From: an uncultured Gemmatimonadota bacterium
Lineage (GTDB): Bacteria; Gemmatimonadota; CAZMKB01
Reading direction: 5' to 3'
Assembly (NCBI GenBank): GCA_964654825.1
Contig: CAZZKG010000006.1
Span: 3,478-67,477, forward strand
Length of the DNA: 64,000 nt
Below, one piece after another: positions 29,552 through 50,734 of this stretch. The notes beneath the pieces are model-generated. The model searched no databases. It had not been told where the DNA came from and was given only the letters and a program-made list of their open reading frames with translations. The first letter of the stretch is position 1; the number at the start of each line of letters is the position of its first letter. The position numbers were made by a program, and so were the translations under genes.

Positions 29552-31504
29552 TCAGTCGAGATACCCGAGAGCTTTGAGCCGCTCCTTGATCTCATCATCC
29601 ACACGTGATGAAACGGCAACAGGGACCCTCCTCTCACCGGATTCATAGGTGTTGACGTAACGTACCGGGTGAGCCTGCATGAAACCGTCCTCGATCGCCT
29701 CGGTCAATGGCCTCCCGTCCATGTCCAGGGCGACAGGCATGCCGAACAGAGTTAGCACAGTCGGAGTAATATCGAAAAGCTCGGGATTGTCAAGTTGTAT
29801 ACCTCTTTTTATATTCTTCCCCGCCATGATGATGATACCTTCCTTCCGGTGTTTACCGGAGTATGTCGGATGGTACATATCACGGATGACACCGGGTTCA
29901 TCCTCATGCCAGACTCCGAAACCATGATCCGACAGAATAATGTAGGTGGCATCGAGGCCGTACACCTCGACATGTTTACCGACGACCTCGTCGAGGAAAG
30001 AATAGTATTTAAAGATAATATCACCGAACAGTTTCGCGTCTTCCTCTCTCACGCCCTCGAAAAGGGTCGGTTCCATATGCTTCCAGAAGAGGTGGCAGAC
30101 GAAATCCGGCCCGCTGAAGTATGTGGCGAACAACGGGGTGGGATGATCTTTCATCAGGTAGAGCCCGAGGGCGGCAATGAAATTGTCTCTCTTGAAGTGC
30201 CGTCTGAACTCATCGAAATTCTGGTTTATGTCGCTTGTATGTAAAATAGTCCTCAGACTGTCGATAGTGAGACCTTCCCACCTGTTCAGAAAAAGTTTCA
30301 CCGGCTTTTCATCCGTGAAATACTCATCTTTCGGATACTCCTCGAGCAGGTCCTCCGGGTAGAGCGCCTTTTCCATGTCAGCCCACCTGATCCTGCTCGA
30401 TACTACGTACCCGTTATCGACAGGCCGTACCGGCCACAGATTCCACCAGCCAAGAATCCCCACATCCACCCCGGCCCGACTCAGTATGTCCCAGTACCTC
30501 AGCGACTTTCCTACTGTACTCGTGGTGGGGATCGTCTCGAGTAAACCATCGAAAAAAGGTATTCGAAAAGGAAAATCCGATTTCATGAACGGTACCCGCA
30601 TGACGGAAAAGTCGAGTATCCCATGTTTTTTTTCTACCTTCCCGGTAGCAACGGATTCCCACAGCGCAGGGCTCCTCATTCCCATGCTTGCGCTGCTGGC
30701 GAAAGCCTGAGTCATGGAGACGTTGGACGCGAGGGGGCCATACGTACCATTATCCATCAGATACTTGATGTTCGGCAGTTCACCATCGGCAATCATCGAT
30801 TCCATGATGTCCAGTGTTGCACCATCCAGTCCTATAATCACCAGCCTGGTAGCTGTTTCCTCACGTGATGCCGTCGGGGCAATTGCCGCTCGTGAGCCAC
30901 GGTTTCTGAGACCGGACCCAACGTGTATGAGCACGGCAACAATAATCGACAGGAGTATAAAGAGGAAAAAGTTGCCTGTCGAACGCGCGAGACCTGCCCC
31001 CCGGAACAGCCGTTTTATACCGAGTGCAGTGTCCTTTAACATGAAACCCACTCCGACACCCACAACACAGAATGCGATGCAAACGGGGATGAACCATGGG
31101 CTGCTGAAGTCGAAGGGCCTGTCGATGAGCACCCACCCGGAGAGGAGGATGAGGAAAACTACCGGTACCGACAGGATGACGGTGAAAAGCGGTACCAGGC
31201 CGAACACCCTGCCTGCTTTCGAAATGAGTCTGTCGATACCCACGCCGGGCAGCCACAGGATAGTTGCCGCAAAAAGAAACATGATCACGGAAATGATCAG
31301 AAAATAGATCTGCAGGATCACAGTATCGTAAAGCAGGACAGGAATCCCGATGACGTACACCGTGAACAGGTACATGATGAGGGAGAACGGAATGCTGAAT
31401 CCCAGCCCGCAGTGAAGCGAACTCCGGAGGTACTTAAACAGCGATACCTTCTCTTCGTTCCGCGTCCTACCGGTCTTCCTGGATGAGCTTCCTGTAGACA
31501 TCAA
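29552..31504 (-). CDS. Polytopic membrane domain fused to alkaline-phosphatase-superfamily (PF01663-like phosphodiesterase/phosphotransferase) domain; C-terminal ...RLKALGYLD tail
   Basis: ~6 N-terminal TM helices, then LVIIGLDGATLDIMESMIADGELPN... (AP-superfamily core), DHGFG metal site. Last gene of the polysaccharide block. Confidence 0.55.
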   Translation of the reverse strand: MMSTGSSSRKTGRTRNEEKVSLFKYLRSSLHCGLGFSIPFSLIMYLFTVYVIGIPVLLYDTVILQIYFLIISVIMFLFAATILWLPGVGIDRLISKAGRVFGLVPLFTVILSVPVVFLILLSGWVLIDRPFDFSSPWFIPVCIAFCVVGVGVGFMLKDTALGIKRLFRGAGLARSTGNFFLFILLSIIVAVLIHVGSGLRNRGSRAAIAPTASREETATRLVIIGLDGATLDIMESMIADGELPNIKYLMDNGTYGPLASNVSMTQAFASSASMGMRSPALWESVATGKVEKKHGILDFSVMRVPFMKSDFPFRIPFFDGLLETIPTTSTVGKSLRYWDILSRAGVDVGILGWWNLWPVRPVDNGYVVSSRIRWADMEKALYPEDLLEEYPKDEYFTDEKPVKLFLNRWEGLTIDSLRTILHTSDINQNFDEFRRHFKRDNFIAALGLYLMKDHPTPLFATYFSGPDFVCHLFWKHMEPTLFEGVREEDAKLFGDIIFKYYSFLDEVVGKHVEVYGLDATYIILSDHGFGVWHEDEPGVIRDMYHPTYSGKHRKEGIIIMAGKNIKRGIQLDNPELFDITPTVLTLFGMPVALDMDGRPLTEAIEDGFMQAHPVRYVNTYESGERRVPVAVSSRVDDEIKERLKALGYLD

Positions 31505-32642
31505 TCACCTCCATCGCACTATTTCGCCAGGTGAATTTTTTCGCTCTTTCGAGTCCTCTCGCCGTCAAGTTACTTTTGAGATCTTCACTCGTCAGAAGCG
31601 TCTCCATCGAATGTTTCATCCCCTCTACATCCGACGGATCAAAATAGAGTGCGGCATCACCCAGCACCTCGGGGAGACTCCCGCCGGTCGAGCTTGCAAC
31701 CACCGTCCCGCAGGCCATGGCTTCCATGGGAGGGAGACCGAACCCCTCGTACCAGGATGGAAAGACGAAAAGCTCCGCACCACTGTAAAGAGCGGGCATA
31801 TCCTCTTCCTTCGTATACCCAGTAAACCTCACCCGGTTGCGAAGGTCGAGTTCGTCGATGGTTCTGGTGACTTCCTCAGAACCCCAACCCAGGTGACCCG
31901 AGATGACGAGACAGACCTCCTCCCTGAGGCCTGCGAAAGCTCTGAGAAGAGTGACCAGATTCTTCCGGGGTTCAACCGTGCCGACAAAGAGGATGTAAGG
32001 TTTCCCGTCACTCACCGTCTGCCGGATCGCAGCGGCACCCACCGGCCGGTAGTGAGATGAAATACCATTATAGACAACACTGATATCATCTTCCCGCACT
32101 CCGAGATATTCGATCATGTCTTCCTTCGTCTTCAGGGAAACAGATATGAAATGATCCACTCTGTGAATTTTTTTGAGTAATTCCTGCATTTCCCACCTGA
32201 TCCTCTTCGTGCTCATCTTTTCAAAGATAAGCGGGACCAGGTCGTGAAAGGTCATTACGGATACGATTCCGCGCAATCGGTACGGCCTTTCGAGGTGTGT
32301 GGGATAATGCAGTATGTCGATGTCACTCCGCCTGATCGTTCTTCCTTTGAGATAATCTTTCAGCATGAGTCTCATGGCGGAAGGGGGATAAAACCTTCCA
32401 TCCCCACCGCCGCGGGTTCCTTCATGTGTTTTCCCTCTGACGAGCGGAAGATCACGGGGTGAAGGAAACCGCACCAGATGGAATCTCCCGAACTCTCCGG
32501 TCTCTTTGTACTTGTCCTGGAAGAGAAGGACTTCGATTCCTTCCAGGTCGGCAAGTTCCCGGATGGTGTGGTAACACACCTTGTCGATACCGGGGAGACC
32601 CGGTCCGATGATGAATTTATCCAGGGTGAATCCTATCTTCAT
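31467..32642 (-). CDS. Glycosyltransferase family 4
   Basis: C-terminal GT4 signature FVFPSWYEGFGLPPMEAMACGTVV. Confidence 0.8.
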   Translation of the reverse strand: MKIGFTLDKFIIGPGLPGIDKVCYHTIRELADLEGIEVLLFQDKYKETGEFGRFHLVRFPSPRDLPLVRGKTHEGTRGGGDGRFYPPSAMRLMLKDYLKGRTIRRSDIDILHYPTHLERPYRLRGIVSVMTFHDLVPLIFEKMSTKRIRWEMQELLKKIHRVDHFISVSLKTKEDMIEYLGVREDDISVVYNGISSHYRPVGAAAIRQTVSDGKPYILFVGTVEPRKNLVTLLRAFAGLREEVCLVISGHLGWGSEEVTRTIDELDLRNRVRFTGYTKEEDMPALYSGAELFVFPSWYEGFGLPPMEAMACGTVVASSTGGSLPEVLGDAALYFDPSDVEGMKHSMETLLTSEDLKSNLTARGLERAKKFTWRNSAMEVIDVYRKLIQEDR

Positions 32643-32648
32643 GATATC

Positions 32649-33851
32649 TCAGTATTCCCCGGACCCTCTTATGTGGATACCTTTTCCCCGAGCGTAGTCT
32701 TCGATGACCTTAACGGTTTTCTCTACACGGGCATCCCAGGTGTTCTGTCGGGCGACATCCACCCGTGCCTTGACCCTCTCAACTCCTTCACCGAGAGCTT
32801 GTTCCAGCGCTTCGATAAAATTCTCTTTTCCATTGACCATGTAGATTACATCCTCGAGATCTTCGAGAGCCGGGATATGAACGGTTACAACGGTCTTTCC
32901 GCCCGCGAGATATTCGAATGTCTTGGTGGGGAAGGCATGTTTACTCCACTCCCCCTGCAGATACGGCATGTAACAGACATCCAATCCCTTGATGTATGAC
33001 GGGAGTGCATCGAGCGGTTTCTTGCCGAGAAAATGGATATTGTCCATTTCTTTCATGACTGTGGGGATCGGATCGTAGTTGGGTCCGATCAATACCTGTT
33101 GCCAATCGGGATGTCTCCTCGAAATCTCAGTGAGCAGATCCCAGTCCATCCTGAGATTGTCGATATTCCCGGTGAATCCGATGCGGGGTCGCCGGATTGC
33201 TTCGAGCTCGGCAGGAACCGGGAGCTCCGGGCTGAGGGCCTGCTCGAAGAGTTCGGTATCGACACCTGGTGCAAAACGATAGGTACGGGGATGCAGTTTG
33301 CTCCGTACGTCGTACAACGATCTCGTTGTTGTAAATACGAGGTCCGCATTCTCGATGAATTCCCTCTCGAGACGCATGAGACCCTTTTTCCGCCGTTCGG
33401 GATTGACAAATGCCGCCACTTCGTCGTGGCAGCCGTAGATGACAAGCTTGCTCCCCAGGTCGGGAGAGGGACACACCAGAAATGGCGCATAGACCCAGAG
33501 AATCGGATCTTCGAAACCGATTTCCCTGAATACTTTCTTCAATGCCACCTCGACGCGGTGTCTGTTCAGCCTGTCGTTCGATTCGAGGATTCCGTACTGG
33601 AGGAGTAACGGCGGCGGGGTGTAGAGATACATTCCCGTGTCCATTTTCTGTACACCCGATCTCCAGTTCTTCCACTGTTTCTTGAGGTTGGGATGTAATG
33701 ACGGATGGATCAGGAACGTCGCAAGGGCGATGGGTGGGTCCACGAAAAGGACCCTGTTGTCCCGGCTCAATTTGTTCATCATGTGATGCATGAGGAGAGG
33801 GACAAAATCATACGTCACCCAGGAAAGACAGACGATGTTCTCGCCTTTCAT
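32649..33851 (-). CDS. Glycosyltransferase family 4-like
   Basis: GT-B C-terminal half PTKTFEYLAGGKTVV and HFLGKKPLDALPSYIKGLDVCYMPY. Confidence 0.65.
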   Translation of the reverse strand: MKGENIVCLSWVTYDFVPLLMHHMMNKLSRDNRVLFVDPPIALATFLIHPSLHPNLKKQWKNWRSGVQKMDTGMYLYTPPPLLLQYGILESNDRLNRHRVEVALKKVFREIGFEDPILWVYAPFLVCPSPDLGSKLVIYGCHDEVAAFVNPERRKKGLMRLEREFIENADLVFTTTRSLYDVRSKLHPRTYRFAPGVDTELFEQALSPELPVPAELEAIRRPRIGFTGNIDNLRMDWDLLTEISRRHPDWQQVLIGPNYDPIPTVMKEMDNIHFLGKKPLDALPSYIKGLDVCYMPYLQGEWSKHAFPTKTFEYLAGGKTVVTVHIPALEDLEDVIYMVNGKENFIEALEQALGEGVERVKARVDVARQNTWDARVEKTVKVIEDYARGKGIHIRGSGEY

Positions 33852-35062
33852 CTCCGGCTCCTTTCGTACAGCGAATCGACGTTCCGGATCAGGTCGTCCA
33901 TAAGTAAACCCCAGTCGAATTTTGAAGCTCCCCTGATCCCGTTCCCGGCCATTTTCTCGACTTCATCACGGTGGGAGAAGAGATCCACTACAGTATCTAC
34001 GTAGGTTTCCGTTTCAAAGGGTATGGCAACGCCACTGTCGAACTTTTTCAGGACGATCTCGGTCTCGGTCCCCCTGGTGCCGATGACAGCCAGTCCCCCG
34101 GCCATGTATTCGATCACCTTGAGCGGAAAGGCATAGATTCTCAATTGATTGGGAGGAAACAGAGCATAGCCGATATCCGCCCTCCTGATGTAATACGGCA
34201 GCTCGATGTAAGGAACGGCCTCCATCTTCGTGACCCACTCATCGATGCCGAGCGATTTGATCTGTCCGCTCAGGCTTCCGTCCGGATCGGGGCCGATCAG
34301 GATCATGTGCGCGTCCGGAATCTTCTCCCTGATCCTTCTGAATCCTTCGAGAGCAATCGAGATCCCGGAGTACCTCTCATCGAAGTTTCCGAAATAGATA
34401 ATCGTGGGAGGGTGCACTTCCTTCACCCCCCCGGCGCTGAACGCGTGATAATTGACTCCGTTGTGAATCACCACAGGTCGTATCCCGAGGTCCCTCTCCC
34501 GTTTCGCCGCGAGCAGATTCCCCGTACAGATGACGAGGTCAGCCTGCTGAATGAAGAAGTTCTCTACGGCCATGGTCACGGAAACTCTCAGGGGTCTCAC
34601 CTGAAATGCGGGAACGTAATCGATATCTCCGTAAACGATGCCGCCCACCCGCCCGAAGGCTTTGAGCACGACCGCGACGAGCATCTCCCAGGGCCCTTCC
34701 GCATAACAGAGAGAAAATGGCCTGCGGATGTTCGTGAGAAAGAGGAGGAGCATGGAGATCGCAACAAGTATTTCCGAAACGGGTCCCAGAAGACGAAACG
34801 GCCTCGCGAAGGACTGGTTGAGAATAGGATTCAGGTCATACACCTTCACAGCACCGTGACGATAGACATTGACACCAGGTATAAGTTTCCTCAGTCTTTC
34901 GGACGATCTCACCGAGACATTTCTGTGTTTGGAGATTACCACCACGCCGCCGTACCTTTCAGCAAGTGCCCTCGCGATGTGCTGACACCGCTGGTTCTTC
35001 TCGACGGTGTAATCGAGAGTGGTGATGACCAGGACATCCTCGCATCTGTTCGAACCTTTCAT
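33848..35062 (-). CDS. Glycosyltransferase family 4-like
   Basis: FPLKVIEYMAGGLAVIGT EX7E-type region. 4-nt overlaps with both neighbours. Confidence 0.65.
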   Translation of the reverse strand: MKGSNRCEDVLVITTLDYTVEKNQRCQHIARALAERYGGVVVISKHRNVSVRSSERLRKLIPGVNVYRHGAVKVYDLNPILNQSFARPFRLLGPVSEILVAISMLLLFLTNIRRPFSLCYAEGPWEMLVAVVLKAFGRVGGIVYGDIDYVPAFQVRPLRVSVTMAVENFFIQQADLVICTGNLLAAKRERDLGIRPVVIHNGVNYHAFSAGGVKEVHPPTIIYFGNFDERYSGISIALEGFRRIREKIPDAHMILIGPDPDGSLSGQIKSLGIDEWVTKMEAVPYIELPYYIRRADIGYALFPPNQLRIYAFPLKVIEYMAGGLAVIGTRGTETEIVLKKFDSGVAIPFETETYVDTVVDLFSHRDEVEKMAGNGIRGASKFDWGLLMDDLIRNVDSLYERSRR

Positions 35063-36324
35063 CTGGAAAATGTCCTTTCGATGTGCACGAGCATCTTCTC
35101 GACCATACCTTCCCAGGAATTATCTTCGGCCTCTCTGATCCTTTTCTCGACTTTCTCCTCGGTGTCTTCCGAGAGAGCGCGCTCAGCGGCTTCTATGAAC
35201 TCATCCGGAGTACCCGCTATCTCTACTATCCCTGAAAAGAGATCGATCACATCTGGGATCGGGGCCGAAATGACGGGTTTGCCGGAAGCGAAATATTCTA
35301 GAAGCTTCGTCGGGTTGATGTTGCGCGTGTTGTCATTCAATACAAAAGGGATCAGACAAATGTCGAACGCTTTCAGGTACCCGGGTAGTTCATGGTACTC
35401 TCTTCTCCCGATCATGTGGATGTTCGGTGCTTTCTTCTCGATGTGCGATGGCCCGATCAGGAGTATGTTCCAATCGGGTTTTCTCGCCGCGACGGTTTCG
35501 AGCATGTCGATGTCCGTCCTGGTGTCGACGAGACCAAAATAGCCGAGGACCGGTTTCCCGAGCCCGGCAGCGTCGGACGGTATGACGGTGGTTTCTTCCC
35601 TGGATCTCCCGAAGTGACTGCTCTCGACACCACACTGGATGAAGTGCATGTTTGGATTGTGCCTTTTTTTCCTCTTCCAGAGCTGGAGTGTGCCGGTGAA
35701 CACGAGGTCGCATTTTCGGATGAGGTTGATTTCCCTCTCCTCGGTGTCGGCCGGGAACCAGGAGAACGAGCTGTACTCATCCTGAATATCGTAGAGGACA
35801 AGATCTTCATCCAGATGCCCCACAAGCGATTCATAGGTTGGATAGTAAAACCAGAGAACCCGTCTGTTCCCCACCATCCCGTTCAGGGAAGTAAACCACT
35901 TCAGGTAATTTCTCAAAATCAGTCTGTTGAGAATCCTCACCAGAGACAATTTACTATCCCCCCATAGCATGAGGGGTCTGAAGGTGAGCAGATTGTCGTT
36001 GTGTTTATGAGCAGTGAGTGAGCCGGTTGTAGTACCTTCTTTCGCAGCACTGAGAGTCGGAATGGGACAGCAGTAGAGGACTTTGCTCTTCTCCGAAATG
36101 CGGGACTGGGTGTGGTGGTTTCTCTGCCAGAGATAATCCCAGGGTACCTGGGAGATGACGACAAACTCGAGGTCCGTGCTGCGCCTGGAAGTCACAGCCT
36201 TATGTCCCGAGGCACAAACAATCCTTCGAAACAGGGTGATCACAGAATCGATCAGCACCCACGCCGACAGGGACAGGGTTCTCAGCATGACTTCGGTTGA
36301 CGATAATTCTTTCTGCATCACCAA
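35059..36324 (-). CDS. Glycosyltransferase family 4-like
   Basis: NPTKLLEYFASGKPVIS, LGYFGLVDTRTDIDML GT-B features. Confidence 0.65.
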   Translation of the reverse strand: MVMQKELSSTEVMLRTLSLSAWVLIDSVITLFRRIVCASGHKAVTSRRSTDLEFVVISQVPWDYLWQRNHHTQSRISEKSKVLYCCPIPTLSAAKEGTTTGSLTAHKHNDNLLTFRPLMLWGDSKLSLVRILNRLILRNYLKWFTSLNGMVGNRRVLWFYYPTYESLVGHLDEDLVLYDIQDEYSSFSWFPADTEEREINLIRKCDLVFTGTLQLWKRKKRHNPNMHFIQCGVESSHFGRSREETTVIPSDAAGLGKPVLGYFGLVDTRTDIDMLETVAARKPDWNILLIGPSHIEKKAPNIHMIGRREYHELPGYLKAFDICLIPFVLNDNTRNINPTKLLEYFASGKPVISAPIPDVIDLFSGIVEIAGTPDEFIEAAERALSEDTEEKVEKRIREAEDNSWEGMVEKMLVHIERTFSR

Positions 36325-36346
36325 TTCTACTCAGGGGTGGATTATA

Positions 36347-37693
36347 TCAGATTCCGGTAACATATGTGCTTTCCTCCCCACCATCGGTGAGCCTGTTCAC
36401 CAGCTCCACTCCCTGCATCAAGGAGTGATCCATATTCCCCACCTCGTATTTCCAGCCACCGAATCTTCCCCTGGAGAAAATACTCTTTCCTTCGAAGAAA
36501 GAATGAATCGTACGCATCGCATCATCGCGTCCGAGTGAAGGAACCGGCAGGAGGGAGGGAACATCGATAAGATATGTGGAAACGATGTCTTTTCTGTCTC
36601 CATCCCGGATAATGCCGGAGTTGACAAGACCGGTCACGGTCTCTTCGGTGATTGTGTCACGATTCACCTGCTTAAACGGTGAGTGGGAAATTTCACAGAG
36701 AAGCGAATAATAATCCCCTTTCGGTGTCATGTTCGGGGAGTAATTCGAGAGGTAGGTAACCCGGTAGAATGGAGAGTTGCCTTCGGGGAAATACATCCAG
36801 TTCTTGTCGCTCGGACATGGCTGAGCCAACCCCAGACCGATGATGAAGCCGCCCGCCTTCCTGAGATTGTTTGCCGCTTCTTTTACTTCATCAGGAACAT
36901 CATCCGTGATGCCGACGAGCTCATCAGCGGGAATCGTTGTAATCAACGAACCGAACTCCGTCTCGCTCCCATTCTCGAAAGTGACCTTCCTGTCACGGAG
37001 AGAAATCTTCACGGCTCTGTGTGACAGTTTGATGCGCTCCCCGAGAACAGGTGCAAAAGCACCGAACAGGCCCCCTGTCCCGCCGTGGAGCGGAAACAGA
37101 AACAGATTGTTTGGACCCCATGAGCTGTCATCCTGACCGTAGACGATGTTTTTCATCACATGTTTGATGTCGACGACGCTCACTCTTTCCCCTATCCAGT
37201 TATAATCCATCATGGTTAAAGGATGCGACCACACTTTCTGGTTATACGGTATGAGGAAATACTTTGCGATCCCGTCGCCGAAGACCATCCTGATCCAATC
37301 TTCGAAGTTGTTGGGTTTCCCGCCTTTCTCTCTCGCCTCGATCAGGCCAAGGATGCAATCGAGGACTACCTCTCTCGGCAGGAAGTGAAAATTGTTCTGA
37401 AAAGGATATCTCACGAACTTCCCCATCAGGCGTACCCAGCTTTCCCGCTCGTGGGAAACGACATCTTCAGCCAGGAGTTTCTTGATGATTTCATCGTAGT
37501 ATGGATAGTGAGAAAACATGATGTGGCCGCCGATATCCCAGGTGAAACCCTTGTCGTCCACGAAACTCGCCGACAGACCACCCACATAGGAGTTCATCTC
37601 GTACATATCCCAGTCTTCGTGGCCGATTTCGTTAAGCCGATAACCGGCACCCAGCCCTGTCGGTCCGGCTCCAAGAACAACAATTCTCTTCAT
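36347..37693 (-). CDS. FAD-dependent oxidoreductase of the amine-oxidase superfamily, UDP-galactopyranose-mutase-like
   Basis: Rossmann motif MKRIVVLGAGPTGLGAGYRL, C-terminal GRFGGWKYEVGNMDHSLMQG. Position within the glycan locus suggests a sugar-nucleotide mutase role (inference). Confidence 0.5.
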   Translation of the reverse strand: MKRIVVLGAGPTGLGAGYRLNEIGHEDWDMYEMNSYVGGLSASFVDDKGFTWDIGGHIMFSHYPYYDEIIKKLLAEDVVSHERESWVRLMGKFVRYPFQNNFHFLPREVVLDCILGLIEAREKGGKPNNFEDWIRMVFGDGIAKYFLIPYNQKVWSHPLTMMDYNWIGERVSVVDIKHVMKNIVYGQDDSSWGPNNLFLFPLHGGTGGLFGAFAPVLGERIKLSHRAVKISLRDRKVTFENGSETEFGSLITTIPADELVGITDDVPDEVKEAANNLRKAGGFIIGLGLAQPCPSDKNWMYFPEGNSPFYRVTYLSNYSPNMTPKGDYYSLLCEISHSPFKQVNRDTITEETVTGLVNSGIIRDGDRKDIVSTYLIDVPSLLPVPSLGRDDAMRTIHSFFEGKSIFSRGRFGGWKYEVGNMDHSLMQGVELVNRLTDGGEESTYVTGI

Positions 37694-37791
37694 CTGATTT
37701 CCTTCCACCTGCCTTTTTGTGTATGTTCGACTGATCTCACACTGGTATCGGTATGTCTATCATCCATTCCCATCCTGCAGCAGATCCGGGA

Positions 37792-39975: not shown

Positions 39976-40023
39976 CCGTGAGCACAGGAGAGACTAGAGG
40001 GCACCATTGCCCCGATTACCCCA

Positions 40024-41868: not shown

Positions 41869-43556
41869 CGGTTTCCCTCCTTTACAAATATTTCGACGCC
41901 AGGCATGAATGTGTCTCTGTATGTCGGATCGAGTCTCCCGTACAATCCACTGTGCATGAAATCCCTCCGATAGTCAGCCACCCGCCTGTACCCGTAGATC
42001 CCCGACCGCAGCCCGTCGATGAATTCCCTCCCCTCTTCGGTCCCTTCGCTGCCCCGTTCGAACCCGACGGTGATGAGCCTCGAAGTGATAATGACATCCG
42101 GTTGCTGCTCTTTGAGCCACGTACGTGTAAATTGATCGGGTCTCATGAGGGACAGGTCGTAGGTTTCACCCGAGAGAGGAGGTGTGAAGTGAGTGGCGGC
42201 GATCGTGCTGCCCACCGCGACATTTTCACTGACCCATCTCAGACCCTCATCGAGTGTCGAACGACCCCGGGGCATATACCGTTCGATCGACCAGGTAAAC
42301 ACACCGGTATACACGATGACAGCTGCCGCGACGAGGCAGGCCAGTTTTCCTGCTACTCCCCGTCGTCTGGTGAGGAGAGAAAATGCATATCCTGCTGTTA
42401 TGCAGAATCCGATCACAAGCGGTATGTAGTATCTGAGAAAAACCACTTTCATCACCGACGTGAGCAGAAAATAGGGAATTGCATAGAACAGGATCCAGAC
42501 AAAGCCCTCTTCTTTCTTCCAGATGCCTGCGACAATCCCCACGAGGGAAACGAGGTACAACGGCAGCCCGAGGGAGAAGGGAAATGCAGCGAGAATCTGA
42601 TAGAGAATACGATGGTAGACGATACCATCCCCGGCCAGGTCGAAACCAGGGTGCCCCTTTTCTGATACATGGAACATCTCATACGCGAAATCGGTACTGA
42701 ACCGCTCGTAATCGAGGGCTATGAACGGTGAGCAGGCCAGAAAAATGAGAATCGCCAGCAACACGGTCCTGATCGGACCCTTTCCGAGAAAGCTGGCGAG
42801 GATGAACCGCCTACCCTTCCTGAACAACATCGGCAGAATCGACAGGACGAGCGCTCCGTTGTACTTGACCGAGGCCGCGATTCCGGCGGCCACCCCCACC
42901 AGTACCGAGGAACCGCGTTTTTGTCCGGCCTCTCCCCTGACACCCGCGTAAAGCGCGAGCGTCATGAAAAAGGTCATGAGGACCTCCTGTTTGATATAAT
43001 GCGACTCGAGGACGTGCAGGGGTGTGACCGCAAGTGCAAGTGAAGCGAACGCGGCTGCCCGCCGGGAAAAGAGTCTTTTCACGAGGAAGTACAGAAGGAT
43101 CACCGTGAGCACTCCGATCAGGGCAATGGAACACCTGCCGAGCAGGTACAGATCGGCCTGGGCGGCATCGAACGAGAGCTTGAATGCAGTGAGTGTCGGT
43201 ACCTTTCCCGAGACGATCGAACCCAAGGCGAAGGGCACGAAGTGGACTGAATAGTAAATCACCACGAGCCCGCAGAGATAATAGAAGATGAAAGAAGGGT
43301 AGTGAAAAAAATGCGGATTCAGGTCACCGGTAGACACCATCTTCACCACCCTGCTCATCACCCTTGTCTCATCGATGTGGTAATGGAGCGGGAGACCGAA
43401 ATCAATCCCGTATATCCTCAACAGGAGAGCCACGAGAGCGATCAGAGACAGAACAATATAATCCCCTCGACCTGTCCTTCCTTCTTCTGCTCTGTATCGT
43501 TCGGAGTTCAACACGTGATAAACCTCAATCTGTCGATTCCCGTTCTGTCTATCCAT
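41865..43556 (-). CDS. Glycosyltransferase family 39 (ArnT/PMT_2-like)
   Basis: Multi-TM protein with YHIDETRVMS...FFHYPSFIFY ArnT-like N-terminus and a periplasmic C-terminal domain. Start chosen at MDRQNG, since the track start overlaps the upstream LmbE gene by ~250 nt. Confidence 0.5.
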   Translation of the reverse strand: MDRQNGNRQIEVYHVLNSERYRAEEGRTGRGDYIVLSLIALVALLLRIYGIDFGLPLHYHIDETRVMSRVVKMVSTGDLNPHFFHYPSFIFYYLCGLVVIYYSVHFVPFALGSIVSGKVPTLTAFKLSFDAAQADLYLLGRCSIALIGVLTVILLYFLVKRLFSRRAAAFASLALAVTPLHVLESHYIKQEVLMTFFMTLALYAGVRGEAGQKRGSSVLVGVAAGIAASVKYNGALVLSILPMLFRKGRRFILASFLGKGPIRTVLLAILIFLACSPFIALDYERFSTDFAYEMFHVSEKGHPGFDLAGDGIVYHRILYQILAAFPFSLGLPLYLVSLVGIVAGIWKKEEGFVWILFYAIPYFLLTSVMKVVFLRYYIPLVIGFCITAGYAFSLLTRRRGVAGKLACLVAAAVIVYTGVFTWSIERYMPRGRSTLDEGLRWVSENVAVGSTIAATHFTPPLSGETYDLSLMRPDQFTRTWLKEQQPDVIITSRLITVGFERGSEGTEEGREFIDGLRSGIYGYRRVADYRRDFMHSGLYGRLDPTYRDTFMPGVEIFVKEGNR

Positions 43557-44290
43557 TCGAGGTACCGAGAGACAGAAAAACAGAGAAATGCTTCGGCATA
43601 CCCGGATGATCCCATCTCGAGCGCTCTCCTCTTCGAGAGTGCCAGGGAAGTCCGCATGTAGTCGACCTGTTCGAGCTGAGATGCAAAACAGAGGAGCGCC
43701 TCCCGTTTTGCCCGCGCGTAAGGTGAAATGTCCAGATACAGATTGGGTGGTAGAGGCGTCCACACTTCATATCCGAGAATGAGGGTCTCCGGGGCCGATG
43801 ACTGAATGATCCTCTTCAGTAACCGGTTGGTCTCTATGTGATCAACGTGGTTGTCGAAGAACCAGGGGAGGAAGATGAGTTCGGGTGCAAAATCTCTCAG
43901 GAGCTGTTTCAATCGATTCAGTATCCGGGGCTCAGGTCTGAGGAGCGTTTCCGGAGCTGACAAGTGTTCCGTCTCTGTCACTCCCAGTATCTCGAGCGCA
44001 CGAGCCGATTCCGCCTTCCTGATCCGTTCCACCTCCGACCTGTCATCCATCCGGGGGATACCCTCCCTACCGTCGGTGAGATAGATAACCTTGACTCTGT
44101 GTCCCCGTTCGAGCTGCATCAGAATGGTCCCACCCATACCGATCACATCGTCATCGTAGTGCGGAGACAGAACCAGAGTCCTGCCTCCCGGAAGTTCATT
44201 GATGACCACCCGTCCACGGCGATTGCACAGCTGCAGAATGGATCTCTTGTACCGGTTAAAAATTATATTACCGGGCATTCCCCTCTCCAC
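43508..44290 (-). CDS. PIG-L/LmbE family N-acetylglucosaminyl deacetylase
   Basis: LVLSPHYDDDVIGMGGT and HVDH motifs of the LmbE-like zinc deacetylases. Confidence 0.8.
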   Translation of the reverse strand: MERGMPGNIIFNRYKRSILQLCNRRGRVVINELPGGRTLVLSPHYDDDVIGMGGTILMQLERGHRVKVIYLTDGREGIPRMDDRSEVERIRKAESARALEILGVTETEHLSAPETLLRPEPRILNRLKQLLRDFAPELIFLPWFFDNHVDHIETNRLLKRIIQSSAPETLILGYEVWTPLPPNLYLDISPYARAKREALLCFASQLEQVDYMRTSLALSKRRALEMGSSGYAEAFLCFSVSRYLEWIDRTGIDRLRFITC

Positions 44291-44969
44291 GTAAAACGAA
44301 ATCGGAGGGTGTCATGATCCCCTCATCACAGGAGATGAATGACTCATACCAGCCGCGCCCACCCCCCGCCATTGCGCTCCCGTAAGCCATAGCCGATTGC
44401 GAAAGCTGAAGTTCTCCCCCGCAGCCGAGTGCATGGAGCGCCAGGAATTTTGATCGGACGGCCTGATCGACACAAAGCTGATATTCGGGGAGCACAAGCA
44501 TTCTTGACTGGTAATAAAAACTCCCGAGGTGAAGCTTCTTTTCCAATTCATCGATCTTCGGCTTCTCATCCGCGGTGAGCGGAAACGGATAGAACAGGAT
44601 CGCTTCGTGGGGGACTGCCGGGCTTCCATCCTGTTCCCAGCAGCTCAACCGGGGAGTAACAATTACGGTGCCCAGCTTACGGATCGCCGTCTTTTCGCGA
44701 TCAGTGTAAGGTTTCTCTACCACCGCGAGACACTCCCCATCCACCGCTGCGTGCCCCGCCAGAAGTCCCCCACAGCCTGATATTACCTCCCGCACGTCCC
44801 TTCCGTATACTATCAGGATGGTCCCGTGACCTGGCTTGAGAGGAGTGGGGATCACCACGAGGTTCAGGGGTCGGGGTAAGATGTTTCCGGTGATCCTGCC
44901 AATACCGGCAATCGCCCTTTTGATAAATGCTTTTGCCATGAATCTACACCAATCTCGAGATAGATTCAT
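44268..44969 (-). CDS. Hypothetical soluble protein in polysaccharide locus
   Basis: 233-aa ORF, no recognised domain. Overlaps neighbours by ~25 nt on each side. Confidence 0.3.
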   Translation of the reverse strand: MNLSRDWCRFMAKAFIKRAIAGIGRITGNILPRPLNLVVIPTPLKPGHGTILIVYGRDVREVISGCGGLLAGHAAVDGECLAVVEKPYTDREKTAIRKLGTVIVTPRLSCWEQDGSPAVPHEAILFYPFPLTADEKPKIDELEKKLHLGSFYYQSRMLVLPEYQLCVDQAVRSKFLALHALGCGGELQLSQSAMAYGSAMAGGGRGWYESFISCDEGIMTPSDFVLRGEGNAR

Positions 44970-46164
44970 CGATTCGTAAGCCGGCAGTCTTCGTGTAGAC
45001 TTCGCCGAGCTGCTGCATGTGAATCTCCGATGTAAATGTACGCCGCACTACTTCTCTGCCGTTTTTTCCCATCCGGTCTGCTCCCGCTCCGTCCTCGAGG
45101 ATCCGGACAAGTGCCCGGGCGAGTGCGGGTGAATCACCGTAAGGTACGAGTAAACCGGTGGTCTCTTCCTGCACCAGCTCGGGTATCCCGCCGAGCCTGG
45201 ATGCGACGACAGGTCTCCCGGCCGCCATCGCCTCGAGGATTACGAGAGGGCAATTTTCCTTGACGACTGATGGCAGAACCACGACCCTCGAGGCCCCGAA
45301 AAGAGGACGGAGTCTCTCCTCGTCGAGCTGACCGTGAAACTTCACTGCTCCGCCCACGCCAAGCTCACTGGCGGATCGTTGAAGATCGTTCATCTCAGGA
45401 CCGACGCCTACGATGTCGAGAATCGCGCTGGGCACTCCATCGAGGACTTCACGAAAAGAACGGAGGAGGTGATCAACCCCCTTACTCGGATACAGGGAAC
45501 CTACGAAAAGGATACTCCGTGAGGCACCGGGAAGTATACCTCCTTCGAAATAATGAGTATGTACAAAGTTGGGGACAAGTACCGGTTCGATCCCGAAGTG
45601 AGTGACGTTCTCGGCGAGTGCCCTGCTCGGCGTAATGAGAGTCCAGTCCTCCCGTGAGAAGAGCCTCCTGACGAGCTTGCGGGACGGGACCTGGGCGATG
45701 TACTTACTGATCGGGATACATCCTTCACTGACGCAGACGGTCCCGAAGGACCAGGGGCAGACGAGCCCGTTCTTTCTCACACCTCTCTCATTCGGGCACA
45801 CGATCCGTATGTCGTGTGCGGTCTGAACCAGAGGAGGACCTTTGGAACAGGCCAGATATACTGTGTGCGAGTAGAGACAGTTCCCCTGAACATGAATGAG
45901 ATCGGGTCTCTCTTTGTCTATCACCTTCCGCAGCATCCGAAAGAGCTTCGGATTGAACAGATGCTGTTTCATCCTCCCGGTGAGAGCTCCATTACCGTGG
46001 AAGGGGAAGATTGTGACTTTGCCCTCTTCAGACGAGTCTCCCTGATTGAACGTGAAAAGAGAGACCTCAACTCCCCTTTCCCTGAGCATCCTCGTGAGCT
46101 CCATCCTGTATCGGTTCGCTCCACCGCGGACGTCCGCGAAATCGTGGAACATCAGCACTTTCAT
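44944..46164 (-). CDS. Glycosyltransferase family 4
   Basis: GGANRY N-terminal motif, VVLPSVVKENCPLVILEAMAAGRPVVASRLGGIPE C-terminal GT4 signature. Confidence 0.8.
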   Translation of the reverse strand: MKVLMFHDFADVRGGANRYRMELTRMLRERGVEVSLFTFNQGDSSEEGKVTIFPFHGNGALTGRMKQHLFNPKLFRMLRKVIDKERPDLIHVQGNCLYSHTVYLACSKGPPLVQTAHDIRIVCPNERGVRKNGLVCPWSFGTVCVSEGCIPISKYIAQVPSRKLVRRLFSREDWTLITPSRALAENVTHFGIEPVLVPNFVHTHYFEGGILPGASRSILFVGSLYPSKGVDHLLRSFREVLDGVPSAILDIVGVGPEMNDLQRSASELGVGGAVKFHGQLDEERLRPLFGASRVVVLPSVVKENCPLVILEAMAAGRPVVASRLGGIPELVQEETTGLLVPYGDSPALARALVRILEDGAGADRMGKNGREVVRRTFTSEIHMQQLGEVYTKTAGLRIDESISRLV

Positions 46165-47624
46165 ACCGACCTCCGTCCAAAAACGTAGGAGGTGATCTTT
46201 AACAACGGCTCCTTGATGAACCGGTTTATCTCATCCCGGTCGTAAACCCCGAGCACCTTCAACATGTAACAGTAGGGTACGAGGGCAAGGAGTATTCTGA
46301 GGGGCAGAAACAAGCCGTCGAGGAGGATGAGCACAACCAGCATAGTGGAAAGTGCCAGGAGCGGCCGGGGTAACATACCGAGGTAATCGATTTTGTGGCC
46401 GAGAACTTTCCTCACGAAGTAAATCCGTATAAAAAGATCGATAACGGTCGAGTTGAGCGAAACCCATGCGGCACCGATATGCTGATACTTTGGAATGAAA
46501 ATGAAGTTGAGGACAATGTTGATGCACATGTTTACGGCGACGATGGGGGCAAAACTCGACAGGAGATTCGACTGGAGGATGATAACTCTCATCGGTGTGG
46601 TGAAGAAGAGCAGCGCGCACGCCCAGCTGAGTATGAACAGTACCCGGGCGGATTCCTCGTACTGTTGTCCGAAGATGAACAGCGTGATCTCGCGGTGATA
46701 GAGGATGAGGACGCTGAAAACCGGCAGCGCCATGGTCAGGAAGAACTTCTGCAGTTTCTGATAAATGAGGACCAGTCTTTCCTTCGCGTGTACATAGAGA
46801 GCGGAAATAGTCGGCTGCATCGCGACGTTTATCAGAACACCGGCCATGGCGATGTGTTCGAGAATCTTGTACGGAGCGGCATAAATGCCCACTGACTCTT
46901 CACCGACCATCTTCGAAAGCATGAAGAAATCAACGCGGATATGGATCATCATGATGAGACCGAGTACCGCGAAAAACATGGCATCCTTGAATATTTTCCT
47001 GCAGAAGACAGTGTCGATCTCGGGTTTGAAAGAGGGAACCACCCGTTTAACGAACCACATGAGGATGATCAGTTTCACCCCACTCCAGAAGCCGAAGGCG
47101 AGCAGGATGGTTTTAATACCGAATCCGAGCCAGATCAGAACGATGCCCGAGGCTGCTGGGAGAAAGCCGACGGCCACCTCGATTGCGGAGGTTATGTCCA
47201 TGCGCTCGTGGGCCTTCAGCATCGAGATGAAGGGACCGGACAGTGTAGAGAAAATCAGGAAGGGTATTCCGGCATAGAAGAGCCCTACGATCTCACCCCG
47301 GTAGCCGACTGCATGGATGAGAAGAATCATGAGGACGGAAACGATTATTGATGTGATTATCTTGATACCGAGGATGTTCCTGATGTACTTGCTGGAACGA
47401 GAGTAATCCCTCGCCACGTCCCTCACCGTGAGCGTGTCGAGCCCGCAGTCACTGAAGATGCCGAAGAAAGCGAGAAACAGAAAGACGAGGGACCATTGAC
47501 CGAACCCTTTCGTCCCGAAGTAACGAGCTGCAATAGCAACGAAGGTGATGCTGATGACCTTTGTGAGGATCTGGGCGATTTGGAGGGAGACGACATTTCT
47601 CAGTATGGTAAATCTTTTGTCCAT
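46161..47624 (-). CDS. wzx: Polysaccharide flippase (Wzx, MOP superfamily)
   Basis: 12-14 TM helices. N-terminus KVISITFVAIAARYFGTKGFGQWSL... typical of PF01943/PF13440 flippases. Confidence 0.7.
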   Translation of the reverse strand: MDKRFTILRNVVSLQIAQILTKVISITFVAIAARYFGTKGFGQWSLVFLFLAFFGIFSDCGLDTLTVRDVARDYSRSSKYIRNILGIKIITSIIVSVLMILLIHAVGYRGEIVGLFYAGIPFLIFSTLSGPFISMLKAHERMDITSAIEVAVGFLPAASGIVLIWLGFGIKTILLAFGFWSGVKLIILMWFVKRVVPSFKPEIDTVFCRKIFKDAMFFAVLGLIMMIHIRVDFFMLSKMVGEESVGIYAAPYKILEHIAMAGVLINVAMQPTISALYVHAKERLVLIYQKLQKFFLTMALPVFSVLILYHREITLFIFGQQYEESARVLFILSWACALLFFTTPMRVIILQSNLLSSFAPIVAVNMCINIVLNFIFIPKYQHIGAAWVSLNSTVIDLFIRIYFVRKVLGHKIDYLGMLPRPLLALSTMLVVLILLDGLFLPLRILLALVPYCYMLKVLGVYDRDEINRFIKEPLLKITSYVFGRRSV

Positions 47625-47643
47625 TCCACTCTGGGGGGAAGAT

Positions 47644-49320
47644 TCAGCTCAGATAACCGAGACCCTGGAGGGTTTTCCGAATTTCTTCCTCCTCGTCGGT
47701 GGTATAGCCATCAACAGTTTTCTCGGGTACGGAGCCTGGTTCCAGTTTCACGAACCTGAGTTCATTCGACTTCTTGTAATCTTCGGTAAAACACTCGAGC
47801 AAGACCTTTCCATCCATCTCCTCGGGGACGGGCATACCGAACATGTGAATGATCGTCGGGGCCAGGTCTTCGATGCGGGCATCCTGCACAACATGAGCTT
47901 GTCTGACCCCCTCCCCCCGCATGAAAAGTATTCCATTCTCACGATGCAACGCAGGTGTAAACTCGAACGGGTCTCTATAGATCTGATCGACGAAGAAATC
48001 GGCTCTCGGAAGGATGCTCAGGTCCCTGGTGAGGAACTGGATATCGGGAGCGAGCTCCATGTAAGGTCCCCTGTAGAGTTCTTCCCTCCGGTAGGCTTTC
48101 TCTACAACCCGTTCCCCGTCTGGATCAAGAATCTCTTCGAGGCCGCTGATGATTTCGTCTCTCAGTTGCTCGTACTCGGCCCCGGGTCGGATGATGCCTT
48201 CCGGTTCCCTCCCCTGCAGATTGATGATGATGATTTCTTCTCCCCCGCTGAAGCTCGAGAAAGCCTTCGTACGTGACCAGTCGATCATCGACATATACAG
48301 TCTGTCCAGAGTGACACCGAGAAGCCGGGGTTTCAGCAATCTCGCAGCCCTCCTGCCGAAGGCCCTGAGAAGTCTATCGAGACTCTGGTAGCTGCTGTCA
48401 CCATCGAGCTGATCTCTGCCGACTCCCAGCAGTTTCGCCAGGAGTTTCGAACCGGATTTCAATTTCAGGTAACCGCGTTCCAGCAGCCATTTGTTGATGT
48501 AGAACCTGCCCTCGATCGGACCGCACCCGTGATCAGACATGACGATGACGGACACATCTTCCCCGGCGGCAGAGATGAGTTTCCCGAGGTAATCATCGAG
48601 GACCGCGTAGCACATTTCGATGATGCCGCCGTACTTTTTATTCTCCACCGGATGCTTGTCTCTGTACTCAGGTACCTTTATCCGCCAGGCCCTGTGCTGT
48701 ACGAGGTCGACGGTCCTGAAGACAGTCATGAAGAAATCCCAGTCGAATTTCCTCATGAGGTACAGATTTGCATCCAGTATCTTCCTGGTAGTGTAGAGCA
48801 TGTGCATGAAAGCTTTTTTCTCATCACCACCCCAGAATATTTTTTCTGAATCACTGTCGAGCGGGTAGTCTCCGAGAGCACAGAGGAGATCGAGATGCAG
48901 ATCGGCCGGGTGGGTGAAGATATGGTCGGTACTCGGAGTGAGCAATCCACTTACCAGATAACCATTGACCTCTTCCGGAGGGTAGGTCAGGGGAACGTTT
49001 ACCACCCCCACTTTTTTCCCTCTGTCACTCAGTATCTTCCAGACACTCCTCGCTTTTATCGAATTATAGGTGATAAAAGGACGGTAGTACGTACCATCTT
49101 TTCTCTCACGAAAGTAGAACACGCCGTGTCCACCGGGATTCATACCGGTGATGAAAGATGACCACGCGACGGAACTGTTGGGAGGTATCGTGGAGAGTAG
49201 CGTGCCGGAGGCGCCTTCCTGACAAATTTTCGAGAGGTTCGGGAGTTTTCCTGCTTCCATCATGGGAGATGCGATGTCGAGTGTTGCTCCATCGAATCCG
49301 ACGACCAGCACCTTTTTCAT
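47644..49320 (-). CDS. Alkaline phosphatase family protein (PF01663-type), soluble; C-terminal ...LQGLGYLS tail
   Basis: MKKVLVVGFDGATLDIASPMMEAGKLPNL...TIPPNSSVAWSSFITGMNPGGHGV, DHGCGP metal site. Start set at MKKVL (GGGGAG ~11 nt upstream) rather than the track start. Confidence 0.65.
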   Translation of the reverse strand: MKKVLVVGFDGATLDIASPMMEAGKLPNLSKICQEGASGTLLSTIPPNSSVAWSSFITGMNPGGHGVFYFRERKDGTYYRPFITYNSIKARSVWKILSDRGKKVGVVNVPLTYPPEEVNGYLVSGLLTPSTDHIFTHPADLHLDLLCALGDYPLDSDSEKIFWGGDEKKAFMHMLYTTRKILDANLYLMRKFDWDFFMTVFRTVDLVQHRAWRIKVPEYRDKHPVENKKYGGIIEMCYAVLDDYLGKLISAAGEDVSVIVMSDHGCGPIEGRFYINKWLLERGYLKLKSGSKLLAKLLGVGRDQLDGDSSYQSLDRLLRAFGRRAARLLKPRLLGVTLDRLYMSMIDWSRTKAFSSFSGGEEIIIINLQGREPEGIIRPGAEYEQLRDEIISGLEEILDPDGERVVEKAYRREELYRGPYMELAPDIQFLTRDLSILPRADFFVDQIYRDPFEFTPALHRENGILFMRGEGVRQAHVVQDARIEDLAPTIIHMFGMPVPEEMDGKVLLECFTEDYKKSNELRFVKLEPGSVPEKTVDGYTTDEEEEIRKTLQGLGYLS

Positions 49321-49404
49321 TCTCAACTGCTCCCCTGATAAAAATTTTCCCCCTCCCTCCGATGAAGGCAGAGGGGGAAGTGATACGAGAACTCTTTCCC
49401 GCAC

Positions 49405-50205
49405 TTACTCGAGGAACACATCCTCAACTCTCGGCTCGATGGCTATCCCGCGCTCTAGCTGAAGAACGGGTCGGACGACTATCTGCAAGGTCTTGAAGAA
49501 ATCCCGTATATCACCCACGAAGCTCCTTGGAACGTACAGGACATCCCCCGCCTCCAGATTGATGTTCTCTCCACCGGAACCCTTCACGAGAAAGTCCTGG
49601 AGATCGAGCCTCTCGAGATAGGGATCATCAATATCTCCCCGTATAAGAATAACGGAAGACTTGTTGCCGTCATTTGTAAAACCGCCGGCTTTCGCGATCG
49701 CTTCGACCGCCGATGTCGCGCTGTTCAGCACAAAGACACCGGGCTTCTCGACCTCCCCGAGGACGAAAATCTTCTGGCTCCTGAGTGAAATAACCTCAAC
49801 TCCGACCTGAGGATTGACGTAGTACCGAGCAAGACCATCCTGAACTGTCCGTCTCAATTCTTTGATGTCTACCCCTCCTGCTCTGATATATCCGAGGAAG
49901 GGGTAATAGAACTCACCCGAGACATCGAGCTTCACCTTCTTGTTGAGGTCTTCATGACCCCATACTCGGATCGCAAGCTCATCGCCGGTTCCGAGGATGA
50001 ACTCGGTAATGTGTGGGGGTGCCTCATCCAGTATCCGACCTTCCGGTTGATCACTGCCCGGGAGAGAACCGGCACTATTTGTTCCACCACTGCATGAAAC
50101 AGACATCAGACCTACACAGAAAAGGAGCAAAAGTTCTCTGAATATTGAATTGAAGGTGTTGAATAGAGGCGGAATCGAAACGTTAAAATTCCTGAAAATT
50201 TTCAT
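49405..50205 (-). CDS. wza: Polysaccharide export outer-membrane protein Wza (Poly_export + SLBB)
   Basis: Lipoprotein-like signal LLLLFCVGLMSVSCSG, GDELAIRVWGHEDL...YYPFLGYIRAGG (Poly_export), GDVLYVP SLBB. Confidence 0.8.
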   Translation of the reverse strand: MKIFRNFNVSIPPLFNTFNSIFRELLLLFCVGLMSVSCSGGTNSAGSLPGSDQPEGRILDEAPPHITEFILGTGDELAIRVWGHEDLNKKVKLDVSGEFYYPFLGYIRAGGVDIKELRRTVQDGLARYYVNPQVGVEVISLRSQKIFVLGEVEKPGVFVLNSATSAVEAIAKAGGFTNDGNKSSVILIRGDIDDPYLERLDLQDFLVKGSGGENINLEAGDVLYVPRSFVGDIRDFFKTLQIVVRPVLQLERGIAIEPRVEDVFLE

Positions 50206-50514
50206 AAATACACCCCCAGAGGCCAAGAAAACAGTTACAATATTACCCACAATCTGAATGTGTTTAGTCGAAGATACGGTTCACTATTTACTTGTGCATA
50301 ACCCGTACCACATTAAAGAAAATTTACTCTTTATTTAGACCCTGTCAAGTCTCATACCATCTAGGGGTTCCCTTGAATTCACCAATCGATTGGATAGTTA
50401 AAAGACGAAAATTTGATTCACCGTTCGCAGTGGTAATAAGAAAGACTATTCCCGTCACGATGGATCAGTCAAAGCGTACATTCCTTCACAATTTTTCCGG
50501 CGGGATCGACATTT

Positions 50515-50591
50515 ATAAATAGGGACAGTCACCATTTATTTAAAAATAACATAACGGTGACAAAAAAATAAATGGTGACTGTCCCTATTTA
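50515..50591. repeat. REP doublet: perfect 25-bp inverted repeat (ATAAATAGGGACAGTCACCATTTAT / ATAAATGGTGACTGTCCCTATTTAT) with 27-bp spacer, between the priming transferase and wza
   Basis: Arms at 50515-50539 and 50567-50591 are exact reverse complements, with the same core as the RAYT-flanking REPs. Confidence 0.85.
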
Positions 50592-50734
50592 TCGTAGACA
50601 ATGACAGCGGGTAGTCGAGGTTCCTGGCCAGGCGAGACGACGCAAGGAGTATCTTTAGTTACTCCGAGGAGTAGCAACGCAGCCAGGGGACTTGAGAGTC
50701 GCCTGAATTGGTGATGAATTTCTGGGACGGGACA

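Follow-up and report, generated by a model that had tools for sequence, protein, structure and literature searches.

Why should four different enzymes encoded in one bacterial polysaccharide locus end in the same short tail? The question is raised by a stretch of 64,000 nucleotides (here called the window) from an uncultured Gemmatimonadota bacterium (GenBank assembly GCA_964654825.1, contig CAZZKG010000006.1, positions 3,478 to 67,477 of the forward strand). A preliminary description of the window, made from its letters alone, had noted a common C-terminal tail on four phosphatase-superfamily enzymes and had proposed docking, oligomerisation or sorting as its possible function. Here, we ask how widespread and how specific this tail is and which of these functions suits it best; the answer that we favour is a capped helix that may dock on the catalytic body of a partner enzyme.

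Four AP-superfamily enzymes of one locus share a C-terminal tail

The four open reading frames (ORFs) belong to the alkaline phosphatase (AP) superfamily and lie on the minus strand at 29552-31504 (P1), 37792-39975 (P2), 40024-41868 (P3) and 47644-49404 (P4). Their common ending can be written as [acidic]-x-x-Φ-+-E-R-L-[KR]-x-L-G-Y-[LIV]-x-stop. The individual tails are DDEIKERLKALGYLD for P1 (29555..29599, minus strand), DKETRELLKALGYVD for P2 (37795..37839, minus strand), DPEESERLRSLGYIH for P3 (40027..40071, minus strand) and EEEIRKTLQGLGYLS for P4 (47647..47691, minus strand), each followed by TGA, which is the stop codon in 4/4 genes.

A scan of all stop-to-stop segments of at least 60 aa in the six frames of the window bore out this observation. 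LGY[LIVM] lay within the last 12 residues of 4 of the 494 segments, namely P1-P4, and of none of the other 490; 'LGY' as such occurred 10 times in the whole set. Hidden Markov models of both enzyme branches detected exactly four AP-superfamily ORFs in the window, again P1-P4, and the probability of four marked segments among 494 being exactly the four AP ORFs is 1/C(494,4), or ~4e-10. The tail-coding stretches differ at synonymous sites (Gly as GGG, GGT, GGA and GGT, Leu as CTC or CTT, Tyr as TAT or TAC) and the DNA downstream of them is unrelated from gene to gene, which argues that the likeness is selected at the protein level. A DNA repeat or gene conversion was rejected as its source on the same grounds.

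That the enzymes represent two AP-superfamily branches and differ in membrane architecture, as originally described, was likewise confirmed. P1 (29552..31504, minus strand; 650 aa) is a polytopic membrane protein with a C-terminal PF01663 (NPP-type) domain (E=3.7e-17, 63.4 bits), and P4 (47644..49404, minus strand) is a soluble PF01663 enzyme without a signal peptide (E=1.8e-31, 110.4 bits; Pfam gathering cut-off 23 for both). P2 (37792..39975, minus strand; 727 aa) and P3 (40024..41868, minus strand; 614 aa) are polytopic membrane proteins with a PF00884 'sulfatase-like' domain (E=1.6e-47, 162.7 bits and E=2.1e-38, 132.8 bits, respectively; cut-off 25). By crude hydropathy, three of the enzymes have ~5, 7 and 5 transmembrane (TM) segments (~5 in P1) and the fourth has none.

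The tail is conserved across phyla and specific to AP domains

To count carriers among homologues, we required an ending L-x-x-L-G-Y-Φ(-x). The tail was found in 116/120 best homologues of P4, down to 36% identity, the four exceptions looking truncated, and in 46/57 homologues of P1. On the sulfatase-like branch, it was present in 89/120 homologues of P2, including soluble proteins of ~460 aa from Chloroflexi and a Halorubrum archaeon, and in 106/150 of the nearest 50%-identity cluster representatives of P3, with ~15 more carrying a few extra residues. Overall, 75-97% of the homologues in the two branches end with the tail, down to ~30% identity; ~100,000 relatives reach E<1e-3 in the protein library searched, and the nearest named relatives, at 52-57% identity, come from metagenome-assembled genomes (MAGs) of Candidatus Glassbacteria. 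A scan of one genome per species placed carriers in at least 587 species (at least 587 loci), among them Planctomycetota, Chloroflexota, Acidobacteriota, Verrucomicrobiota, Desulfobacterota, Omnitrophota, Elusimicrobia and a lineage of the candidate phyla radiation (CPR), as well as archaea that include haloarchaea and Thermoproteota. The tail is therefore not a tag specific to this locus.

Within each branch, the tail residues behave like those of the active site. Its Gly and Tyr are among the 24 invariant columns of an alignment of 78 sequences of the P4 family (A1; G555, Y556) and among the 11 invariant columns of a 67-sequence sulfatase-like alignment (A2; G479, Y480), in both cases alongside catalytic or metal-ligand Asp and His. 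Judged by these alignments, the tail is family-wide and under strong selection, with G-Y as invariant as the metal ligands.

It had also been said at the outset that the proposal would fall if the motif turned out to be the universal last helix of PF01663 and PF00884, present in unrelated genomic contexts and thus not locus-specific. This turned out to be half the case. The tail is indeed family-wide across phyla, but it is not universal in the two Pfam families, since tail-less paralogues exist, and the four distant contexts that we inspected were all glycan-biosynthesis loci. The tail-less classes include PF01663 proteins of ~490-530 aa whose sequence stops with the '...DMEGK.L' core, as well as certain tandem fusions and sulfatase-like proteins of 690-800 aa. 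In the alignments to solved structures, the tail fell outside the aligned part. A universal last helix was therefore rejected, both because the Pfam/NCBIfam matches and the structure alignments stop short of the tail and because some paralogues and subclades lack it. The tail is covered by no Pfam or NCBIfam model matched on P1-P4, in line with the earlier remark that it could not be assigned to a named domain, and a full-text literature search aimed at the tail found no description of it.

Specificity was measured on 85 fetched loci (~1.3 Mb in total). In this set, the tail was present on 124/157 AP ORFs, as against at most one of ~2,700 other ORF segments, and ~6 more AP ORFs carried the variant L-R-G-W-G-Y. 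By this count of ORFs, the tail is specific to AP domains. AP genes were often clustered, with at least two AP ORFs within 10 kb in 47/85 loci and at least two tail-bearing ones in 31/85. The four distant homologue contexts, from Halorubrum, a 4.5-Mb genome, a metagenome and an Anaerolineae MAG, contained GT2, GT4, PMT_2, Wzy, Bac_transf or DUF2304 genes; a second AP paralogue was present at three of the four, and every such paralogue bore the tail. For the Halorubrum cluster, which has glycosyltransferase and sugar-nucleotide genes, no Wza- or Wzx-type Pfam family was listed.

The sole carrier outside the AP superfamily in the 85 loci was a CysD (sulfate adenylyltransferase subunit 2; L056:14584-15420, minus strand; match to 1zun_A at E=2e-67) that ends ...MQKLRALGYM. 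Its gene is the immediate downstream neighbour of a PF01663 gene without the tail (L056:15407-16717). The CysD of P. syringae (1zun_A) ends ...EEKKRQGY(F), so that the CysD family appears to have an analogous helix-GY-Φ C-terminus. CysD has an unrelated fold, however (a PP-loop ATPase), and its canonical form is without the L-x-x-L part. Convergence or chance is the probable source of the likeness, and a structural explanation for the C-terminal GYF of CysD was sought and none was found.

The tail is a tethered, capped helix beyond the catalytic fold

We derived logos from 274 PF01663-type and 216 PF00884-type non-redundant tails, anchored on the Tyr (position 0). The two were nearly identical from -9 to +1. 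An acidic or S/T N-cap at -12/-13, in the form D-x-x-E or S-x-E-E, is followed by I/V/T at -9, E at -7, R at -6, L at -5 (97-98%), R/K at -4, G/A/S at -3, L at -2 (95-97%), G at -1, Y at 0 and L/I/V at +1; G and Y stand at 100% by construction, the tails having been chosen by the LGY pattern. In ~90-95% of the tails, 0-1 residue follows position +1; the motif is sometimes trailed by 5-25 extra residues. A profile-profile alignment of the tails of the two branches gave a probability of 97.6% (P=2.9e-12, 25 columns), a value that is partly circular for the three selection columns.

The module thus runs from a variable linker through an N-cap box (S/T/D-x-x-E) and a three-turn amphipathic helix to a Schellman-type C-cap, L-x-x-L-G-Y-Φ. 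The linker, of ~15-25 residues, is often acidic and comes after the canonical end of the catalytic fold; the stretch by which the helix is tethered has 15-22 residues and no secondary structure. In P2, the matches to PF00884 and SGSH_C stop at residues 580-614 of 727; in its model, the last core helix (437-453) and a 15-residue linker precede the tail helix. The canonical fold of P2 ends with the '...LLQW' helix, which is where tail-less sulfatase-like relatives stop. AlphaFold2 (AF2) monomer models were obtained for P4 (predicted local distance difference test (pLDDT) 93, predicted template modelling score (pTM) 0.93) and for the catalytic domain of P2 (pLDDT 88, pTM 0.91). In both, the tail helix, at 541-553 and 469-477, respectively, stops just before L-G-Y. 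Tails were placed with lower confidence than cores (pLDDT 78-88 versus 97-99 in P4 and 62-71 versus 95-98 in P2).

The Schellman or alpha-L motif, a well-known way of capping the C-terminus of a helix, has a hydrophobic residue at C3, a second at Ccap, Gly at C' and a third hydrophobic residue at C'', which corresponds to L-x-x-L-G-Y in the tail. Such a cap accounts for the invariant Gly, but not for the invariant Tyr, the conserved charges or the restriction to AP enzymes.

The carriers are predicted Thr/Ser-nucleophile enzymes of glycan loci

One set of carriers is the PF01663 group, annotated as 'predicted AlkP superfamily phosphohydrolase/phosphomutase', and the other is the PF00884 group with T/S-x-P-x-H. 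For the former, the model of P4 resembles NPP and PhnA folds (Foldseek E ~1e-13). In alignment A1, D10, D242, D263, H264 and H459 are invariant and S43 is nearly so; T44, beside S43, is the putative nucleophile by likeness to the T-F-P-N motif of NPP, and the Asp and His positions are provisionally assigned to the metal site from the NPP/PhnA literature. The longest P4 ORF begins with GTG at 49404. Its homologues measure 555-561 aa and the alignment begins at the ATG at 49320 (MKKVLVVGFDG...), which is probably the true start and would give a protein of 558 aa, so that the 28 N-terminal residues of the longest ORF are probably untranslated.

On the sulfatase-like branch, the nucleophile motif is T-V-P-T-H in P2 and T-A-P-S-H in P3, and both, along with most of 270 relatives (by a loose regular expression rather than a count of aligned columns), show T/S-x-P-x-H-x-S-x-x-T-G at this position. 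NPP sequences bear the same T/S-x-P-x-H motif. The formylglycine signature C/S-x-P-x-R is found at the nucleophile position of neither P2 nor P3, and the NPP-like motif in its place indicates that they are not formylglycine (class I) sulfatases. Annotating such genes in glycan loci as 'sulfatase' would thus mislead, and many such annotations would not denote formylglycine sulfatases. In addition, the scores of P2 and P3 against the NCBIfam sulfatase equivalog, EptA and LtaS models were all far under the cut-offs. From their motifs, we class the P2/P3 group as uncharacterised Thr-nucleophile enzymes of the AP superfamily.

The solved folds closest to P2 are phosphonate monoester hydrolases (PMH; 4uph, 2vqr), the dimeric arylsulfatases SpAS1/2 (4upi, 4upl) and choline sulfatase (6g5z). 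The membrane-anchored PF00884 phosphotransferases LtaS, EptA/MCR and OpgB/MdoB are laid out like P2 and P3, with a sulfatase-fold domain behind a polytopic N-terminal one and a Thr nucleophile, and act, as predicted for P2 and P3, in the modification of cell-envelope glycans. P2 and P3 match the EptA, LtaS and YejM models of NCBIfam, albeit at scores far under the family cut-offs, and their best sequence matches are arylsulfatase- and PMH-type enzymes rather than the LtaS/EptA/OpgB type. Fold, motif and context together suggest that the enzymes decorate or trim glycans, either by phosphoryl or sulfuryl transfer or as diesterases. Agl7 (HVO_2046) of Haloferax volcanii, presumably annotated as sulfatase-like, may be a member of the group. 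It is required for the sulfation of a DolP-hexose (PMC3892788).

The tail is kept inside fusions and across membrane architectures

Nine tandem AP-AP (sulfatase-like) fusions bear the motif at the end of both domains, for example P0244 at positions 457 and 899, P0248 at 543 and 1016, and P0324 at 456 and 925. Wherever an internal motif is followed by anything but an AP domain, this is an array of tetratricopeptide repeats (TPRs), as in six proteins of both branches, five with PF00884 (P0238, P0318, P0242, P0243 and P0252) and one with PF01663 (P0414). P0242, P0243 and P0252 (1317-1549 aa) read AP-tail-TPR-AP(-tail)-TPR, each sulfatase-like domain being followed by a TPR array. Internal copies in AP-AP and AP-TPR fusions indicate that a free C-terminal carboxylate is not needed. 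By the layout of these sequences, the tail is part of the AP domain unit. It is nonetheless an add-on that is dispensable for the fold, as paralogues without it stop exactly where the canonical core does.

Among the tail-bearing proteins, crude hydropathy assigned no TM segment to 216, one N-terminal hydrophobic segment to 27 and at least two TM segments to 114. The tail thus probably works on both sides of the membrane, to go by segment counts, and its presence on soluble, signal-anchored and polytopic proteins alike makes a single compartment-specific partner unlikely, with the limit that the counts predict no orientation.

These features also bear on the sorting function proposed earlier. 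LPXTG, PEP-CTERM, GlyGly-CTERM and PGF-CTERM signals combine a signature with a hydrophobic TM helix and a basic tail on a secreted protein. Here, we found a hydrophilic amphipathic helix that ends 1-2 residues after the Tyr and is kept internally in fusions, and most carriers lack a signal peptide, 216 of them having no N-terminal hydrophobic segment at all. A C-terminal sorting signal was therefore rejected as unlikely. A C-terminal degron was set aside as well, on account of the internal retention, and the tail differs from carboxylate-clamp TPR ligands of the EEVD type, which depend on a free carboxylate.

DUF2304 (PF10066) is fused N-terminally to the tail-bearing PF01663 enzymes P0090, P0104 and P0113, and it also adjoins or is fused to GT2 at L002:2083-3129 and L003:7613-8014. 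This uncharacterised domain is a recurrent small membrane partner of tail-bearing enzymes.

The tail may dock on a partner protomer

What might the tail do? Docking or oligomerisation remains the best reading of the three functions first proposed. We put the probability at about 50% that the tail is a tethered capped helix that docks, by analogy with other members of the superfamily, on the catalytic body of an AP protomer, most likely a partner. Its Leu/Leu/Tyr/Φ face would be buried there, most probably on the other protomer of a homo- or hetero-oligomer, and once docked the helix could help close or shape the way into the active site. We take the tail to be the conserved end-piece of a large set of Thr/Ser-nucleophile AP enzymes in bacterial and archaeal glycan and polysaccharide loci. 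In favour of docking are the spread of the tail through the family, its likeness on both branches, its restriction to AP domains, its retention in fusions and the recurrence of AP paralogues in one locus. Extreme conservation, a tether and the weaker placement in monomer models fit a docking element whose full context, docking in trans, is missing from the models.

There is precedent for this in PMH, SpAS and choline sulfatase, which oligomerise through C-terminal extensions that are particular to each subgroup and extend to the active site of the neighbour (PMC5870055). Truncating the tail of choline sulfatase lowers activity by orders of magnitude (PMC5870055). As in RlPMH (2VQR), SpAS1/2 (4UPI/4UPL) and SmCS (6FNY) (PMC5870055), the LGY tail is a subgroup-specific add-on after the canonical end of the sulfatase fold, and P2 does extend beyond that end. 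The add-on is helical in SpAS and SmCS, the tail residues are conserved like those of the active site, and, among solved folds, theirs come nearest to that of P2. In contrast to theirs, the LGY tail is far shorter, a single three-turn helix on a linker, occurs on the PF01663 branch as well, and belongs to enzymes with T/S-x-P-x-H instead of the formylglycine motif. Docking in trans is known for PMH, SpAS and SmCS and is, for the LGY tail, a prediction by analogy.

Several points weigh against this proposal. The AF2 models are monomeric and came without coordinates, so that a contact of the tail was seen neither in cis nor in trans, and the fairly high monomer pLDDT of the P4 tail (88) would suit packing in cis just as well. 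Tandem fusions without the tail exist (P0301, P0309 and P0383), and pairing of AP domains thus does not require the tail. A near-identical helix in branches with ~12-15% core identity calls for a similarly conserved receptor surface, which is hypothetical. Finally, no resemblance in sequence was detected between the LGY tail and its counterparts in PMH, SpAS and choline sulfatase; with 4upl_A, phmmer aligned weakly up to the residue before the motif, with no LGY in the aligned part.

Alternatively, the helix might be purely structural, a stabilising last element that packs back on the catalytic domain of its own chain and takes no part in oligomerisation or partner binding. The AF2 monomer of P4 sets linker and helix at pLDDT 78-89, rather than below 50, and a latch of this kind would agree with a tail that is retained in fusions and present whatever the membrane architecture. 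We nevertheless consider it unlikely, given the poorer placement of the tail in P2, the paralogues and subclades that fold without a tail, and the near identity of the motif in both branches, as an intramolecular contact should drift with the divergent cores. An amphipathic helix that binds the membrane or a lipid carrier would suit a K/R-bearing segment on enzymes expected, from the content of their loci, to act on lipid-linked glycans. This is very improbable for a short helix with an acidic N-terminal half and only ~3 hydrophobic positions, all the more as it is kept on polytopic proteins, for which a further anchor would be superfluous. A signal for stability or degradation, which we rate just as low, is countered by the internal copies.

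The tail could also be a portable ligand by which a shared partner outside the AP superfamily, such as a TPR-type scaffold or other glycan machinery, recruits several AP enzymes. A motif shared by both branches and by several paralogues of a locus, PMT_2/GT-C genes that recur nearby, and a low to moderate monomer pLDDT despite extreme conservation would all be consistent with this, and the six AP-tail-TPR proteins from both branches provide a Rosetta-stone hint. We still regard it as doubtful. The Pfam scans found no TPR protein encoded in the window's own locus (29552..51610); no partner was identified, and the motif does without a free carboxylate where it lies internally. Carriers with no, one or several TM segments mean that a single partner would probably have to span different compartments, again by segment counts that leave orientation aside. 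The flippase, Wza and GT39 had been named as possible partners to which the tail might tether the enzymes, an idea that received no support: nothing that we found links the tail to Wzx, Wza or GT39, and it occurs on proteins ranging from no TM segment to polytopic. One may go further and imagine the LGY helix as a portable interaction tag that assembles several glycan-decorating phosphoryl- or sulfuryl-transfer enzymes in one complex, was shared by transfer or by convergence on the same receptor, involves TPR scaffolds in some lineages and is conserved from CPR bacteria to haloarchaea, but this is speculative and we would not expect it to hold.

C-terminal oligomerisation tails are an established theme in the AP superfamily, and docking by the LGY tail would extend it. 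What is new is that one short capped helix recurs in the same form on two branches of the superfamily and marks a very large set of glycan-locus enzymes; it is conserved like their catalytic residues, yet is covered by no domain model. As a sequence marker, the ending ...L-[KR]-x-L-G-Y-Φ-(x)-end is simple and highly specific. By it one can recognise a very large set of Thr-nucleophile AP-superfamily enzymes, as yet uncharacterised, that are linked to polysaccharide and N-glycan loci in numerous phyla of bacteria and archaea. If the tail governs oligomerisation or closure of the active site, it will be needed for the right expression constructs, for structural work and for functional prediction. 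Its occurrence in the same form on both branches makes it a clean case in which the idea of a shared docking module can be put to the test. We see it as useful for annotation and structural work, but not very surprising.

The surrounding locus is chromosomal

Pfam scans of the minus-strand polysaccharide locus (29552..51610) gave the order Bac_transf, Poly_export/SLBB (Wza-like), P4, a Wzx-type flippase, GT4, a 233-aa ORF, a PIG-L deacetylase, PMT_2 (GT-C), P3, P2, a flavoprotein (amine-oxidase/UGM-like), four GT4-like genes and P1. The 233-aa ORF (44268-44969, minus strand), between GT4 and the PIG-L deacetylase, had no Pfam match. On one side, the flank at 21888-29387 encodes a PNP_UDP_1-family phosphorylase, UvrB, and ORFs that resemble RelA/SpoT and RadC by eye only; on the other, the flank at 52385-61704 encodes DnaK, an HtrA-type PDZ protease, trigger factor, ClpP, ClpX and Lon. 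With housekeeping genes on both flanks, the glycan locus is chromosomal and not an obvious island. Its GC content is even, at ~0.51-0.56.

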